DNA of 35,276 nucleotides from a virus (taxonomy: Duplodnaviria; Caudoviricetes), in the IMG/VR virus record IMGVR_UViG_3300011334_000418, positions 1 to 35,276 of that record, one strand, 5' to 3'. The notes under the pieces were generated by a model, which was not told the DNA's origin, did not search any database, and was given only the letters and a program-made list of their open reading frames with translations. This document shows positions 5,055 through 32,619 of the stretch, one piece after another (position 1 is the first letter of the stretch; each line of letters begins with the position of its first letter). The translations under genes were made by a program, and so were the position numbers.

Positions 5055-6377
5055 ATGTCTATCGAAAAAATCATTGAAAAGGTTGATGCAATTGAAGTGG
5101 CAAACCAAGCCAAGATTGTTGAAGCCGTTGAAGCCGTAAAAGCAGAATTTGAAGAAAAGATTTCTACCCTTGAAGCCAAGGTTGCGGAAGTTAAAGCCCC
5201 TCAAATCATCCAATCACCTGCAAAAAGTGTTAAACAAGATGTGAACCGCATGGTTCGTGAACAAATCCGCGATTTCACCAAATCTTCAAAAGGTTTGGAA
5301 AAAGAAATTAAGATTTGGGAATCTGTGGATCAATACGATGCATACCTAAAAGAAGCAAGCGCATTGACCGGTTCCGGCGCGGGCGTTGGTGGTCGTGTTG
5401 CTTACGATCCCGTATTCCATGTGATGCGTTTGGCTAACCCAATGCGCGGTTTGTCGCGCAATGTGTCAACCGATGGCGCACAATACACTTTCCGCGCCAA
5501 AACAGGCAACGCGGGTGCGGCATGGGGTTATGCAATCAATAACAACGGTTCCGGCACTACTGAAAGCACAAACATTTGGCAATTGAATTTGCAAGATATT
5601 AATGTGCAATTCCCAATCCGTACCGCCGCTTTGGATGATATTGATGGTTTGGAAGCCAATGTGGTTGACGATATGCTTGTGGAATTCTCGCAAGTTGAAG
5701 GTCAATCAATGATTCAAAACAACGATCAATCCGGCACAACCACCACTTCAACAGGTGGAACAAACGGCTTGCGTGGTTTGAATTACTATCCCGGCGCAAA
5801 CAGTTCATATACAGGTGGTACAACTTCCGCTTATGCTTTTGGCACAAGTGGTACAGGTGCAACCGCCGGTTTGAATAGCATTGCAACTTACGATCAAATC
5901 ACAACAAACGGTTTTGCAAGCGCAAACAATGTTAAGTATGCGGATTTGATTAACTTCTTGCACGCTTTGCCACAACAATATTGGTCAAATGGCAACAAGT
6001 GGATGATTTCACCTTTGATGCTTGCCGGTATTCGCGGTTTGGTTGATGACAACGGCACACCTGTGTTTGAAAGAATGTCCCCATTGGTTTACGATGGCAT
6101 CGTTGGCAAGTTGCTTGGTTACGATGTTGTTGTTAACAACTATGTTGATGCGCCTACCGCTTCCGGTGGTTCCGCAGGTACTACAAGCAAGTACCCAATG
6201 TATTTTGGTGATTTCACACGCGGACACACAATCGTTGATCGTTTGAATATGGTATTGCGCCGTTACGATCAAACCGCACCGGGCTTTATCACTTTCTACG
6301 GTGAAAAACGCCTTTGTGCATCGAATGTCGATCCTGCCGCAATCATCCGTTACCGTTCAACCGCAACGGGCGCGTAA
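5055..6377 (+). CDS. Major capsid protein, HK97 fold, with N-terminal coiled-coil delta domain
   Basis: About 100 aa charged helical N-terminus; 'GKLLGYDVVVN', 'MYFGDF', 'ITFYGEKR'; strong RBS AAAGGAAA. Confidence 0.93.
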   Translation: MSIEKIIEKVDAIEVANQAKIVEAVEAVKAEFEEKISTLEAKVAEVKAPQIIQSPAKSVKQDVNRMVREQIRDFTKSSKGLEKEIKIWESVDQYDAYLKEASALTGSGAGVGGRVAYDPVFHVMRLANPMRGLSRNVSTDGAQYTFRAKTGNAGAAWGYAINNNGSGTTESTNIWQLNLQDINVQFPIRTAALDDIDGLEANVVDDMLVEFSQVEGQSMIQNNDQSGTTTTSTGGTNGLRGLNYYPGANSSYTGGTTSAYAFGTSGTGATAGLNSIATYDQITTNGFASANNVKYADLINFLHALPQQYWSNGNKWMISPLMLAGIRGLVDDNGTPVFERMSPLVYDGIVGKLLGYDVVVNNYVDAPTASGGSAGTTSKYPMYFGDFTRGHTIVDRLNMVLRRYDQTAPGFITFYGEKRLCASNVDPAAIIRYRSTATGA

Positions 6378-6449: not shown

Positions 6450-7691
6450 ATGAAAAATACCGCCATTCTTAACGGCATCAAGGAAGCACTAACCAACGGG
6501 GAAGCAACCGTTAACCTGCGCGAAGCAAGTTCCCTTACGGGTTCGGGGCTTGATGCGGGTGGTCGCGTAATTTACGATGATGCGTTTGCTTCTTTGCGTT
6601 ATGCCAACCCAATTCGTATGGGGGCGCGACAAATTGCAACCGATGGTTCGGCACAAGCGTTTGTTGCAAAAACAGGTAATGCAACATTGGTTCAAGATAT
6701 TGCCGTTGTAACCGGCGCAATTTCAACAACCACACTTACAGTTTCCGCAGTAACTTCCGGCACATTGCGTGTTGGTCAATACATTACCGGTACAGGTGTA
6801 ACCGCCGGTACAACAATTACCGCACTTGGTACAGGTACGGGCGGTACAGGCACTTACACCGTAAGCGCAAGCCAAACCGCTTCTTCCACTACCATTACCG
6901 CGCAATCAAACCCTTGGGGTTATGCCATCAACAACAATGGCGGTTCACCCGATATTGCAACAACTTTTTGGCAATTGCCGGTGCGCGATATTAACGCAAG
7001 CCTTCCAATTCGTACCGCAGTTCTTTCCGATATTGATTCATTGGAAGAAGCGGTTGCGGGCGATTTGCTTTTGGAATTGTCGCAACAAGAAGGTTTGTCG
7101 ATGGTTCTTAACAATGACCAATCCGCAAGCACAACTTACGCTTATGGCGCAACAAGTGGTTTGCGTGGTTTAAATTCATACCCCGGTTCCACAAGCGCGG
7201 CGGCATTTGGTTCAAACGGTTCCGCAATCACCAACGGGCGGCATACTGTGTTGCAAGTTGAATTGGCAACCGCAACCGCCGTTGTATATGATGATTTGGC
7301 AAACTTGCAAGCGGCTTTACCGGCGCAATATCTTTACAAGCCAACAACCGCATGGATGATGCATCCAACGACAATCCAAGCGTTGCGTAAATTGAAGGCA
7401 TCCACAAGCGCAAACAACTTCTTGGAAGTTGGTGATGATGATGGCGGCGCGGTGGTTTACATTTTTGGGCATCGCGTAATTCCAAACCCATATATGCAAG
7501 TTGCGGCATCGGGCGCGTTCCCGGTTTACCTTGCAGAATGGGAACGCTTCGTAACCATTGCGGATTACGGCGTAATTGACATTAAGCGATTCGATCAAAG
7601 CGCACCGGGCTTCGTAACCCTGTTTGCTGAAAAGCGCGTTTGCAGTTCCATCCTTGATGTTTTTGCGGGTGTTCGTTTAGTCGGCGCATAA
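6450..7691 (+). CDS. Second HK97-fold capsid protein paralog with inserted Thr/Gly-rich domain
   Basis: Collinear with 5055-6377 (EASx[39 protein letters not shown]); short N-terminus; insertion at 6684-6914. Confidence 0.9.
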
Positions 7692-18700: not shown

Positions 18701-18847
18701 GCATTTAATTTGTATCAAAACGGGGTTTTACAATTTGCCGGAAGCGATTACACTACCGTAACCGGTGGTTTCACTTTAGCAACAACACCCGCAACAAATA
18801 CGGATTTACTTTTGCAACAAACATTCGCAAGAACAGGGGCAGTCTAA
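15752..18847 (+). CDS. Tail tip attachment / central fibre protein (lambda J-like)
   Basis: 'LPIVYG', 'RFRFDGVVDT', 'QLEAGDIVTVT', 'FRVMKVTE'; C-terminal beta-repeat modules. Confidence 0.85.
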   Translation: MPTSVIIAAVATVATYATAGVVAAVVVGVVASAVVAKSFIQSMQPNAGDGGAYGSGSSPNPGNRQQLPPATDNKLPIVYGSAWLGGTITDLSISENNQELYYVISLCEVTNNGNDTISFGDIYWGGKKCNFASSISADVVSLTDTSTGETDTSVNGKLQIYLYSNGSYNPVRGSANAVTVMQTSGLVYTWDNTKLMSNCAFAILHISYNQDAGLTGMQQTKFQVNNSRHKPGDCFYDYLTSDVYGAAVDPSQVDTTSLATLNTYCDQSFTYTDYEGNTTTQTRFRFDGVVDTKRAIMDNLQDMSGCCDCLVRYNEIESKWGVITQQPTYTISMALDDSNMVSSIQITPLDIAGTYNVIECKFPDESNQDSFNSATFDLAQIDPGLMFPNEPVNKQSLSLALVNNDVRAQYLANRMLKSSREDLQVQVQINYAGIQLEAGDIVTVTSSNYGWVAKEFRVMKVTEQFAGDGSITANLLLIEFNASIYDDVNITQFQPAPNTGIADPLVFGNVPAPVVGASYPTNANPLFLVNITASVQGIIQYAEVWYSAFATPTASQLIFAGTTEIQSNGTPYDPGSLLPAVSLASVPAGTWYLFSRMVNSLGTSPYSPASTAFVWKPTTFQYSERYLSVAYADNATGTSNFSLSPTNRLYFGLLNTPSSSGAHDYFEYTWYPADPSFGTNIFLCYANRTGRKFSFATGFADNAAGTGAFVPTQAIIFDPRLWSALPDGLNTIDLDMGTGQVISTGTTTVGTGEIAVTNNPDGKVIASLKPYLDFGSGIYSKTASAATLTIDIYGRVVGFEEPDTFYMTIAQFTATSGQTVFSVTRSTGYISGQCLVFKNGILLDASEYTDTGGTTGTVTLSTGATLNTKITIISFKSVNSTTGVYASFTRNTATLTNASSYTPSGFTITSGYELIFINGAIMMDQDYDVIGGSIVNMPSVANGLLTVIQWTPNNLTTPNGNPVNVVTNTVIGQTAYSFSYTTGAFNLYQNGVLQFAGSDYTTVTGGFTLATTPATNTDLLLQQTFARTGAV

Positions 18848-19443
18848 TGACACAAGCAAATAATTTGGCACTACTTGCAAACAATTTAAACACATCGGGA
18901 CAAGTTGATGCAACCGATGGGCTTAACGGTTTGCTTGCCAATTCAAACCTTGCATCAAGTGGAACCGCAGATGCAACCACTTACCTTCGCGGTGATAGAA
19001 CATGGGCAACCATTTCGCAACGGTTCAGACAAATTTTACAAGTGCAATCAACCACAACCGTAACAACTTCAAGCCTTAACACTTGGGTTTCTACCAATTT
19101 AAGCCAAGCCATTACGCCTTCAAGCGCAAGCAGTCAAATTATGTGTCTTGTGCATTGCCCAATTCGTTTTGGTTCATCAAATGGTATGCAAGCCGGTATT
19201 CGTATTAAACGCGGATCAACCGTTATCATTACAGATACATATTTAAACAATGTGAACGCAATTGTTGATATTTCTTATGGCATCAATTTATCTTATTTGG
19301 ATGCACCGGCAACAACATCTTCAACAACTTATTCGGTTGAATTTGCTTTAACAGGTTCCGCAAGCCCTTATACATACCCAACAATTTGTTGGAACACAAC
19401 TTCATCACCAATTACATTGATTGTGATGGAAATTGCCCCATAA
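18847..19443 (+). CDS. Short tail fibre / receptor-binding protein, paralog 1
   Basis: 'SGTADATTYLRGD' fibre motif, 'YLDAPATTSSTTY', C-terminal 'MEIA'. Confidence 0.7.
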   Translation: MTQANNLALLANNLNTSGQVDATDGLNGLLANSNLASSGTADATTYLRGDRTWATISQRFRQILQVQSTTTVTTSSLNTWVSTNLSQAITPSSASSQIMCLVHCPIRFGSSNGMQAGIRIKRGSTVIITDTYLNNVNAIVDISYGINLSYLDAPATTSSTTYSVEFALTGSASPYTYPTICWNTTSSPITLIVMEIAP

Positions 19444-19452
19444 GGTCAAAAT

Positions 19453-20052
19453 ATGATCCAAGCCTTTAATTTAGCGCAACTTGCAAATAATTTAAATTCA
19501 TCCGGTCAAATTGATGCAACGGATGGATCTACAGGTTTAACAACAAACGCAAACCTTGCATCAAGTGGAACGGCAGATGCCACAACTTATTTGCGTGGGG
19601 ATCGTATTTGGGATTCAGTATCGCAAAAATTTAGGCAAATTGCACAAGTGCAATCAACCACAAGCATAACAACTTCAGTTCAAGGCACTTGGGTATCAAC
19701 CGGATTAAGTCAATCAATTACACCATTAAGCACTAACAGTAAAATATTATGCATTGTGCATTGTCCAATACGGTATGGAACAAATAACGGTGGTGGCGAT
19801 GCAGGAATACGCATTGATCGAAGCGGAACGGCAATTTTTACAGATACTTATAAAAATAATGTAAGCGTAATTGTTGATATTTCATATACGGTTGATTTGT
19901 TTTATTTGGATTCACCTGCAACCACATCTGCATTAACATACACCATTCAATTTGCTTTAACAAATGCTTCCGGAGTTTATGCAAATCCAACGGTTTGTTG
20001 GAACACATCACAAACACCAATTACTTTTTCACTTATAGAGGTAGCACTATGA
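19453..20052 (+). CDS. Short tail fibre / receptor-binding protein, paralog 2
   Basis: End-to-end paralog of 18847-19443. Confidence 0.7.
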   Translation: MIQAFNLAQLANNLNSSGQIDATDGSTGLTTNANLASSGTADATTYLRGDRIWDSVSQKFRQIAQVQSTTSITTSVQGTWVSTGLSQSITPLSTNSKILCIVHCPIRYGTNNGGGDAGIRIDRSGTAIFTDTYKNNVSVIVDISYTVDLFYLDSPATTSALTYTIQFALTNASGVYANPTVCWNTSQTPITFSLIEVAL

Positions 20053-30023: not shown

Positions 30024-30557
30024 TTACTTGCGAAGCCTTGTTGGGAATTGGTTAAACACTTTGCCATGTACGGAACGGTTAACAATGCATTTAGTGTTCC
30101 ACACTTCTTTGGCATCACCCTTTGTTACAACCAAATCAGAATCAAACCATACGCCGCCGTTAAAGCCCATTTTGGCGGCATCACATTCGCCCACTTTTTT
30201 AATCAACTTGCAAACATACGCTTCGTATTGAAATGCGGCATCATCTGCGGCGTTTTTGATAGCGCGGGCAACGCCTTCTTCGCACCAAGTAACCAACAAA
30301 GGTTCACTTGGGCGGCGTGAACATTTAACAGGGGATACAAGTGAACGGGCGTAATCATGGGCGGCTTTTAACGCCATGTATGTTGCGCGTGATGCATTGA
30401 TGCCGGGGCGGGGAAATGCAACATTCAAATCCCAATCTGCGGCTTCCAATTTGGCTTTGATGTTTGCAACAACTTCGTGTGTTGCTTCAACTGCGGCATC
30501 AATGCTTGCTTGCTTGATGGGTTGAACGGCGATTGCGATGGCGTTTTGTTGTGTCAT
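30024..30557 (-). CDS. Hypothetical early protein (first gene of the leftward operon)
   Basis: Start MTQQNA with RBS AAAGGAAA; followed by a GGGGC-GCAA-GCCCC hairpin. Confidence 0.75.
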   Translation of the reverse strand: MTQQNAIAIAVQPIKQASIDAAVEATHEVVANIKAKLEAADWDLNVAFPRPGINASRATYMALKAAHDYARSLVSPVKCSRRPSEPLLVTWCEEGVARAIKNAADDAAFQYEAYVCKLIKKVGECDAAKMGFNGGVWFDSDLVVTKGDAKEVWNTKCIVNRSVHGKVFNQFPTRLRK

Positions 30558-30607
30558 GTTAAGTTTCCTTTTTTTCATCCGGTCATGGAATGTTTGACCG
30601 TGAAAGA

Positions 30608-30660
30608 ATCATAACATAGTTTGTTAACGGTGGGTCAACACTTTTTTTAAGTTTTTTTGC
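30608..30660 (-). promoter_or_regulatory. Leftward sigma70-like promoter
   Basis: TTGACC-19-TATGAT with extended TG and upstream A-tracts; 5' hairpin CGGTCA/TGACCG at 30580-30600. Confidence 0.55.
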
Positions 30661-30709
30661 CTGTTTTTCTAGGTGGTTTCCCTATGTTTTGGGCTTTTTT
30701 GCATTTTTG

Positions 30710-30739
30710 TTGACACCCAAGCGGTTTTTCGGGCAGAAT
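30710..30739 (+). promoter_or_regulatory. Rightward sigma70-like promoter
   Basis: TTGACA-18-CAGAAT. Confidence 0.5.
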
Positions 30740-30744
30740 CGGAA

Positions 30745-31190
30745 TTGTCAACGGTGTGGCAATCGTTGGAAATGCTTAATTCATGGCAACCCCCGATGTT
30801 TTTGGTGGGCTTGTGTGGTTTTGGAATGGGTAGATTTATCCATGTGTTAAGCGTACTGATTCCAAAATTGCCCAACGCCAAGGGTCAAGCCCACCAAAGC
30901 CATTGGGGGTTTTTCTTTTTGGGTTGCCACATTCGTTACCGTACTTCGCACGATAGCAAGCACCGAACCCGGTGGCGCGAAAGAAAAGGGTACAGGTATG
31001 GGCGTATGGCGTAACGCACCCGGTGCAAATCCGTAAATTCCTGCGGCGGGCATGAATCCACAAGCCGGGGGGAAAAGGTAACCAATCCTTTCCATGCGTG
31101 GGTCGTAATTTATTACGGGTGAAGCCATCCTTGTTTTCGTACCCCTTGGGGGTAGGGGGGCATTTGGGTGAAACTTATGAATATCTATAC
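30745..31190 (+). ncRNA. Putative large structured non-coding RNA / replication origin
   Basis: Nested long stems (30788-30911), several hairpins and G-tracts; no credible CDS. Confidence 0.5.
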
Positions 31191-31235
31191 ATGAAGGTAT
31201 GGATGTGTTCACAAACCGGGGAAATCTATACATGA
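31183..31235 (+). repeat. 12-bp direct repeat ATCTATACATGA
   Basis: Copies at 31183-31194 and 31224-31235. Confidence 0.8.
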
Positions 31236-31244
31236 CAAAACAAA

Positions 31245-31469
31245 ATGATTGAAATAAACGATGTAATCCAATTAAATCCGGAAACTTGCAGAAATCAAAT
31301 GTTTGCCGGTTGTTTCATTGTTGTAATTGAAATTGCATCATGGGGTGTTGTTGGTTATGTGCAAGCACTTGGGCAAGATGGCAAACCCGGTGGTCAAGCG
31401 TATTACCGGGCAAGATGGGAAGAATTGGGAACATCAATTGGAACCGCCGAATGGGTGGTTGCGGAATAA
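31245..31469 (+). CDS. Hypothetical protein (SH3-like beta pattern)
   Basis: 'INDVIQLNP...FAGCFIVV...WGVVGYVQ'. Confidence 0.65.
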   Translation: MIEINDVIQLNPETCRNQMFAGCFIVVIEIASWGVVGYVQALGQDGKPGGQAYYRARWEELGTSIGTAEWVVAE

Positions 31470-31521
31470 GTTAACAATGTGTTATTGTTAAACCGTAAAC
31501 AAACTTGAAAGGGGTTTGGTT

Positions 31522-31701
31522 ATGGAAAACAAAGATCAAGCGTATTTATCGGAAACATTTGTAAATTGTTTTGCAATGCCAAATTGTTCTAAATGCAAAC
31601 ACTTTGAATTGTTAACCGTATTTGAATATTGCAACTTACACGACAAGATAACGGAAGGAAACATTTGCAATGGGTTCCGTATTAAAGATGCAGATGCATA
31701 A
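31522..31701 (+). CDS. Small Cys-rich protein
   Basis: CSKCKH...C...C; RBS AAAGGGG. Confidence 0.55.
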   Translation: MENKDQAYLSETFVNCFAMPNCSKCKHFELLTVFEYCNLHDKITEGNICNGFRIKDADA

Positions 31702-32190: not shown

Positions 32191-32619
32191 ATGACAGACG
32201 AACAAGAATTTGATGCCTTTTACAAGGCATACCCCCGCAAGGTTGCCAAAGGCGATGCCCGCAAAGCATGGCAATCCACCAAGAAGATTCGCCCACCATT
32301 GGCAAACATCCTTGCCGCAATCCAAGCCCAATGCAATACCGAACAATGGTTAAAAGAAAACCATGCATACATTCCGTACCCGGCAACTTGGTTACGCGCC
32401 GAACGATGGGATGATGAAATTGAAGTTACCGTTGCGGGCAAAGTGATCGGCAAGGATTGGCACGAAACATGGACAGGCATAACCATGAAGGGCAACGAAT
32501 TGGGCATCTTTGAAAAAGATTTTGACCACCCAATAAAGTTTCGTTCGGCAGTTTACGAAGCCGCCCGCGCACAAGAAGCCGCCGCCGGTAACAATGTTTA
32601 CCAACTTAAATCCGCATGA
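32191..32619 (+). CDS. Stand-alone C-terminal domain of a phage replication initiator
   Basis: 'FDAFYKAYPRKVAKGDARKAW...YIPYPATWLRAERWDDE' begins at residue 7. Confidence 0.75.
   Translation: MTDEQEFDAFYKAYPRKVAKGDARKAWQSTKKIRPPLANILAAIQAQCNTEQWLKENHAYIPYPATWLRAERWDDEIEVTVAGKVIGKDWHETWTGITMKGNELGIFEKDFDHPIKFRSAVYEAARAQEAAAGNNVYQLKSA

Follow-up and report, generated by a model that had tools for sequence, protein, structure and literature searches.

In lambda-type phages, the replication origin sits inside the O gene. RNA-primed origins have their precedent in the ColE1 and MRB types, as set out in the available parts of PMC6380287 and PMC8683028. For cluster A mycobacteriophages, the available text of PMC7157519 describes RNA-based prophage origins in which a non-coding RNA is required where RepA is absent; these adjoin parABS and maintain plasmid prophages, so RNA-based phage origins are already known as a kind. 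At mitochondrial CSB II, an R-loop stabilised by an RNA-DNA G-quadruplex is processed by RNase H (available sections of PMC6317783). A further point of comparison is the Betaproteobacteria-1 RNA, RF02932, of Weinberg 2017 (available parts of PMC5737381).

We analysed a 35,276-nt tailed-phage record (Caudoviricetes; IMGVR_UViG_3300011334_000418; 94% complete), referred to here as the window. Its layout is lambdoid: terminase-to-lysis genes run rightward, SSB/YqaJ/ERF genes leftward, and RusA/HNH genes then rightward again. A sequence-only reading had proposed a ColE1 RNA II-like origin in a gene-free stretch of this record, and had seen no primase, polymerase, helicase or iteron-binding initiator. 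We scanned 31 window ORFs with Pfam and PHROG: both terminase subunits and the short ORF that separates them, the endolysin, and everything from 26.7 to 35.2 kb. No polymerase, primase, helicase, loader, CI repressor or par-family (parABS) match was found among these ORFs, and ORF 33822 gave weak transcription-regulator matches only. Half an initiator is nevertheless encoded (32191-32619). Whole-record searches of the window found no Pol A, DnaB_C or tyrosine integrase. Neither a P/DnaC loader nor iterons were found in the window; beside the AT-rich region there is only an unconserved two-copy 12-mer rather than tandem iterons. In the structural region, tandem major-capsid-like genes (5055-6377 and 6450-7691, the second with a long S/T/G-rich insertion) and tandem tail-associated paralogs (18847-19443 and 19453-20052) were also observed.

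The locus shares with the mycobacteriophage origins a phage context and a non-coding RNA, a likeness by description, but lies in the early replication region instead and has no par genes among the window ORFs scanned. As at CSB II, the transcribed strand carries a G-rich tract close to where a predicted promoter-driven RNA ends; the polymerase differs and the available text of PMC6317783 describes no multi-pseudoknot core, making this an analogy only. The genome position and the initiator C-terminal domain are those of a lambda-type origin, but no N-terminal initiator half, iterons or loader accompany them in the window. With Betaproteobacteria-1 RNA, the element has in common its slot, the kind of hairpin-terminator module before it and the stand-alone C-terminal domain (CTD) gene downstream, although the Betaproteobacteria-1 model did not match the element in the window or in 32 scans of homolog loci.

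Architecture and covariation of the element

Several features had been placed correctly by the sequence-only reading: the promoter (Table 1) and the three G/A-rich motifs (30982-30999, 31067-31076 and 31148-31161) are at the claimed positions. The region folds densely, with z of −4.9 against shuffles on the plus strand and −1.8 on the minus strand. It was also right that no credible gene is present: crossing ORFs have no Pfam or PHROG match and homologs carry frame-breaking indels, which rules out a protein-coding reading. The promoter is the only promoter-like site in 30400-31600; shuffles average 2.5 such sites, so it is not significant by itself. A −35/−10-like pair recurs at the same place in the seven aligned homologous sequences. 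A possible leftward promoter (TTGACC-19-TATGAT, 30608-30638, minus strand) stands back to back with it, with no repressor gene between the two; this stretch is conserved in close homologs, and the promoter scan did not call it.

Table 1. Features of the locus (window coordinates, plus strand).
Feature	Position	Strand	Remarks
Sigma70-like promoter, TTGACA-18-CAGAAT	30710-30739	+	Predicted driver of the element and the rightward early genes
5' leader hairpin	30750-30770	+	Predicted fold; its loop matches the long hairpin's small arm by complementarity (predicted kissing pair)
Long hairpin with side arm (30871-30884) and U-tract	30788-30920	+	Inverted repeat 30788-30813/30886-30911, 88%
Core structured element, ~240 nt, predicted RNA	30934-31173	+	Covariance-model hit, 171.7 bits; covariation
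5' double-pseudoknot domain	30940-30991	+	Helices 92-99% paired, with changes on both sides
Helices of the 5' knot			a, 30940-42/30950-52; b, 30945-48/30978-81; c, 30961-64/30971-74; d, 30967-70/30988-91
Multibranch domain P3 (30993-96/31040-43)	30993-31043	+	Variable P4; T-loop-like hairpin P5 (31021-23/31031-33)
P6 (31045-47/31064-66), pseudoknot PK2 (31056-61/31098-103) and P7	31045-31103	+	
G-tract (G5-TA-G6 in the window, 31148-31161) and conserved tail	31148-31173	+	Candidate R-loop or hybrid G-quadruplex site
AT-richer spacer with unconserved 12-bp direct repeat	31174-31245	+	
O-like initiator C-terminal domain, without N-terminal half	32191-32619	+	PHROG match; putative helicase-loading partner

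The region had been taken for one RNA, but it consists of two separable modules, and the types of 5' module vary independently of the core. Across the 19 IMG/VR loci recovered with an internal pattern, a variable 5' module precedes a constant 3' element. The functional unit is the 240-nt element, behind a separate, swappable hairpin-terminator module. This 5' module is made up of a leader hairpin, a long hairpin and a U-tract, and the long-hairpin unit is predicted to be terminator- or attenuator-like. In 50 of 62 homologs, five consecutive Ts occur no more than 40 nt ahead of the element, compared with 7% of random 45-mers; a simple terminator scan did not call the window's module. The complementarity between leader loop and side arm shifts in concert in several sequence types when read by eye, and a crude automated count gave a modest excess of own over cross-pairs (5.1 vs 4.3 nt). 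C4, c4-a1b1 and P4 CI are antisense-attenuation RNAs, and the module resembles them in its two complementary loops and terminator-like end; C4-family Rfam models did not match it at E up to 10. Beyond the element, A+T is 0.56 over 40 nt, against 0.43 inside it (62 homologs). The 12-bp direct repeat noted earlier is present there (31183-31194/31224-31235) but is unconserved in close homologs.

To assess the fold of the core, we reduced 100 insertion-free records to 65 sequences at <93% identity (mean, 61%), leaving out members with long insertions. The alignment was built by sequence only, and covariation was scored with our own R-scape-like script against 40 tree-based null alignments. Twelve column pairs exceed the maximum of all 40 nulls, 11 of them canonical and located in 8 helices. 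The resulting model has 52 pairs in 13 helices with three crossing pairings; its pairs are 94.4% paired, compared with 76.9% when shuffled, and two-sided change occurs at 40 of them. Since the structure was derived from this same 65-homolog alignment, a held-out test weighs more: in 34 sequences <90% identical to the training set, aligned by sequence only, the nine tested helices outside the G-tract are 75-99% paired vs 59-90% for shuffled columns. Covariation is therefore strong and upheld in sequences that the model had not seen. The alignment also shows recurrent GNRA/UUCG-type tetraloops, T-loop-like loops and G-U-type one-sided changes, which are RNA hallmarks and argue that the element works as RNA. 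We predict that it is a non-coding, multi-pseudoknot, covarying RNA structure.

Motif 1 of the sequence-only reading falls in helix d of the 5' knot, a domain also found joined to other 3' halves, and motif 2 lies in the variable hairpin P7 (31071-78/31087-93). A switch in which the pyrimidine strand pairs with the 5' part was considered and rejected: it is strong in the window's own clade, but family-wide no better than shuffles (−19.2 vs −20.0 kcal/mol). In some members (L069, L072, L075 and L157), P4 carries 100- to 150-nt insertions that form long hairpins with a tRNA-like T-arm and are possibly separately processed small RNAs.

At its 3' end, the element carries a G-tract of the form G4-5TAG5-7. 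Because most homologs were picked on this tract, part of its invariance stems from that choice. Free of this bias is the close clade of 19 loci found with the internal pattern, which does not use the tract; all 19 have it. In the helix that it forms, the partner strand varies between C and U only, none of six pairs changes on both sides, and pairing in held-out sequences equals that of shuffled ones (0.96 in both). Because change is one-sided only, the G run appears constrained as sequence, beyond base-pairing. As a marker of origins, the word was rejected as non-specific: G5TAG6 occurs in ~590 IMG/VR stretches, only 15 of 111 distinct sampled ones scored as members of the element family, and the remainder were located downstream of HNH genes, within unrelated genes or on the antisense strand of O-like genes. 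A different gene-free element with a similar G-tract end occurs in prophage-like records (L096:2780-3040, minus strand, and L179), without a match to our covariance model R1 or to Rfam.

Distribution and genomic setting

The internal pattern yielded the 19 IMG/VR loci, and the 3'-end pattern matched at least 120 IMG/VR stretches (~300 estimated). In GTDB, 5 of its 39 matches were family members; in metagenomes it matched at least 120 stretches (~540 estimated), and 84 of the 104 with enough upstream DNA belonged to the family. Viral and GTDB loci together supplied 98 distinct elements. A covariance-model search found one copy in each of 19 near-complete phage genomes (19/19). The Rfam search that the earlier reading had suggested returned nothing: no Rfam 15 family matches the window or, in 32 scans, the homolog loci. 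Direct blastn of the region against phages and plasmids gave nothing meaningful, and the plasmid search revealed no copy on small Rep-less plasmids. The element is undescribed in the literature searched. Short motifs and two contig identifiers were absent from four table and text supplements of Fremin et al. 2023 (PMC10690425), although the alignment archives of that paper and the PMC5737381 supplement could list it. We regard the predicted phage RNA motif as real, new and strongly covarying.

Gene neighborhoods were compared at 74 loci with more than 2 kb of DNA. The flanks encode a stand-alone O-CTD at 26 loci, a toprim primase at 15 and a T7-gp4-like primase-helicase at 12; the three modules never co-occur and all lie on the RNA strand. 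None is within the flank at 21 loci, and 27 of the 74 encode their own primase. The gene next downstream is highly variable, which makes the element unlike a gene-specific leader. In some genomes the element follows primase or CTD genes, a long way from the divergence point, and in L062 and L229 the DNA downstream reads as opposite-strand genes. Pol A and tyrosine integrase were each found in 0 of 28 element-bearing genomes. A prophage of Verticiella alkaliphila carries a full element (124 bits) together with cI, Cro and CII, and encodes, ~6.4 kb away, an O-like initiator of full length (270 aa) along with a DnaC loader; the element thus does not strictly replace a protein initiator.

A subfamily that lacks the 5' knot but keeps the T-loop and G-tract end (L235:1279-1527, L263, L267, L283 and L347:8000-8204) occurs in prophages and in a phage record with a Synechococcus host and an integrase. 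Blastn with a subfamily query returned only large Pseudochrobactrum replicons and two Synechococcus-host phage records. One prophage that carries the element also has a phage DGR RNA motif (L212:15610-15740).

The half initiator of the window is a 142-aa protein that matches the C-terminal part of phrog_270, phrog_9474 and phrog_9327 (phrog_270 positions 176-277 of 383). Of 15 more distant loci inspected, 14 have this domain fused to an N-terminal part of 122-158 aa. Among 27 genomes, 14 have a single phrog_270 match and none covers profile positions 1-150, which the search was able to detect. No full-length lambda-type initiator with an N-terminal DNA-binding part was found in the window; the Verticiella prophage is the exception in the family. 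Structure comparison of the CTD with DnaD/DnaT/G39P-like helicase-loading domains produced no clear match: SPP1 G39P scored Z 4.9 (rmsd, 2.5; 60 aligned) and the DnaD C-domain Z 3.3, and Foldseek found no match at E ≤ 0.001.

The element model hits 36 of 73 stand-alone-CTD loci but 0 of 25 fused-initiator loci. One of these hits is a full match and the other 35 score only 29-52 bits; the weak hits inspected share the 5' knot and lack the G-tract. Among the CTD loci listed, the slot after the 5' module always holds a structured-looking non-coding element belonging to one of at least four types, and Betaproteobacteria-1 RNA is one of the occupants (3 of 9 loci). At least three other structured types share the slot upstream of the stand-alone CTD, one being Betaproteobacteria-1 and two without an Rfam match; they were seen at L360:3290-3550, L383:3077-3198, L404:3328-3510 and L363:2199-2334.

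Comparison with ColE1 RNA II

The sequence-only reading had recognized three ColE1 motifs in order. Compared with RNA II (NC_001371), the whole region is no closer than shuffles (z, 0.3), and the core element reaches z 2.2. Motif 1 is identical at 15 of 18 positions, but 14 of 300 shuffles attain its best 18-mer match; it is a covarying pseudoknot strand, and 54 of the 65 homologs differ from ColE1 in at least six bases of this motif. An exact copy of motif 2 is present in 2 of the 65, and one of motif 3 in 9. Two of the three proposed motifs are thus not conserved in the alignment, and the spacing between them is 66/80 nt in ColE1 vs ~85/87 in the window.

At the family level, a colinear alignment to the RNA II 3' half, in a different register from these motifs and with G-tract on G-tract, beats 60/60 shuffles at k = 2, 3 and 4, and the RNA II 3' half is the best of 100 ColE1 windows. 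Against ColE1 the family reaches z 3.9; a CloDF-like origin gives 2.7, a p15A-like one 1.2 and pES213 0.8, while the top pAsa2 window, a post hoc choice, gives 4.0. With another family subset, ColE1 gives z 3.5, a value reached by 2 of 224 decoy windows, and the empirical p is ~0.01-0.02. In contrast to the alignment, covariance-model and nhmmer/HMM searches in both directions found nothing at ColE1-type origins, including R1 run with filters off on nine enterobacterial ColE1-type loci and three divergent plasmids. RNA I (RF00106), the antisense RNA that overlaps the pre-primer at its 5' end and that Rfam finds in ColE1, was not detected in the window, nor was a minus-strand consensus promoter in 30400-31600; by the absence of RNA I, the element is not a ColE1-family member.

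In general plan, the locus resembles ColE1/pMB1: a putatively promoter-driven, structured, gene-free stretch of 400-550 nt ends in a G-tract paired to a pyrimidine strand, and pairwise 3'-half alignments give a similar order of elements. Promoter to element end spans ~430 nt, compared with ~550 nt from promoter to oriV for the ColE1 pre-primer. A G-tract on the RNA-like strand just upstream of the putative switch site, as in ColE1-type origins, is found at 31148-31161, but this trait is not origin-specific. Unlike ColE1/pMB1, the phage element has no RNA I, contains an internal hairpin-terminator module, gives no covariance-model, HMM or blastn match, and resides in tailed phages with half an initiator or their own primase. 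Overall, these comparisons make kinship with ColE1 only suggestive, and true homology to RNA II is possible but doubtful.

Proposed function and competing explanations

We propose that the element may be an R-loop-forming replication pre-primer RNA that defines the origin, a reading to which we assign a probability of roughly one half. Host RNA polymerase would start at the predicted promoter, and the kissing-hairpin/terminator module would gate read-through into the core. The folded core would leave the G-tract hybridised to the template as an R-loop, possibly with a hybrid G-quadruplex as at CSB II. Priming of host Pol I for the leading strand would then come from the end of the RNA or from cleavage by RNase H near 31160-31180, and the stand-alone O CTD, or elsewhere a phage primase or primase-helicase, would load helicase and primase on the displaced strand. 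The element is found in genomes without a polymerase or full initiator, in single copy and co-oriented with replication genes, which supports this proposal. The model would explain the slot, why the initiator lacks its N-terminal half, why the genes downstream vary and why the G run is fixed in sequence. What persists of the RNA-primed origin first suggested is a conserved structured RNA with a G-tract end in the replication region; the specific ColE1 match is weak. The slot occupants without a G-tract and the Verticiella case are not explained by the pre-primer model and would fit it only as alternative or second origins. Strand skews do not settle the origin, since GC and AT skew are confounded with gene direction: at fourfold sites, G-C skew is higher in right-arm than left-arm genes in 24 of 33 loci, T-A skew runs opposite, and the window shows no difference.

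Antitermination and a trans-acting RNA are serious rivals of the pre-primer reading. In the former, the element would be a transcription-control RNA, a put-like antiterminator or attenuator partner, for the early rightward operon of phages mostly without cI/N-type control, and replication genes would adjoin it merely as part of that operon. Its location directly after a promoter and a hairpin with U-tract (50 of 62 homologs), the kissing-type complementarity of the upstream module, the lack of a detected cI or integrase in the window (31 ORFs and the whole-record integrase search), the full initiator in Verticiella and the several unrelated RNAs in the same slot would all suit such a role. Yet the element lies downstream of the terminator that would need suppression, in some genomes comes only after primase or CTD genes, well away from the divergence point, and in L062 and L229 precedes opposite-strand genes; the sequence-invariant G run would also go unexplained. 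We consider this role improbable. In the latter, the leader transcript would release a stable non-coding RNA that acts in trans (a scaffold, a protein or RNA polymerase decoy, or a defence antagonist), comparable to other ornate phage RNAs, and the 5' knot would block 5'-end decay. This would account for the densely packed tertiary structure, with its T-loop-like loops and its three crossing pairings, the tolerance of P4 for 100- to 150-nt insertions and the reuse of the 5' knot on other 3' halves. It is likewise an improbable explanation, given that the element keeps one position and orientation in the replication module with all three gene sets and is tied to initiators without an N-terminal half; moreover, apart from one weak site, the terminator scan recognized no 3' terminator to delimit a free RNA.

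Were the element to work as folded single-stranded DNA, as a single-strand origin or a primosome/helicase loading site, its adjacency to primase, helicase and CTD genes would follow, and initiator genes and CRESS Rep regions do contain the G-tract word at the DNA level, in reading frames that differ. The one-sided changes of G-U type, the GNRA/UUCG-type tetraloops and the T-loop-like loops are RNA hallmarks, however, and the element always follows a promoter-terminator unit, so we regard this as very unlikely. A bolder extension of the pre-primer reading is that a large lambdoid-type group swapped the DNA-binding half of O and its iterons for interchangeable primer RNAs: the present motif, two further types and Betaproteobacteria-1 RNA. 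The RNA would be the R-loop origin, the O CTD would load the host helicase, and the motif would be distantly related to the RNA II 3' half, linking plasmid and phage origins. We think this scenario unlikely as a whole.

These results bear on the way in which the many uncultured lambdoid-like phages without a polymerase or complete initiator start replication. A widespread, covarying predicted RNA in a fixed slot is a short, clonable candidate replicon with a possible evolutionary link to ColE1 RNA II, and the slot that it shares with an orphan Rfam motif suggests a function for Betaproteobacteria-1 RNA that can be put to the test. Should the origin reading fail, the element would still offer structure work a compact new multi-pseudoknot RNA fold.

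Two further sequence features were noted during the searches. At L030, L034, L035, L037 and L038-L041, one shared G/C palindrome-like word of 19 nt is found, either antisense within O-like initiator genes, in differing reading frames, or in CRESS-type Rep regions, which suggests a DNA-level constraint there. Phage non-coding regions in L278, L300 and L304 contain many copies of a 14-nt repeat beside a G-tract, apparently near the packaging start.
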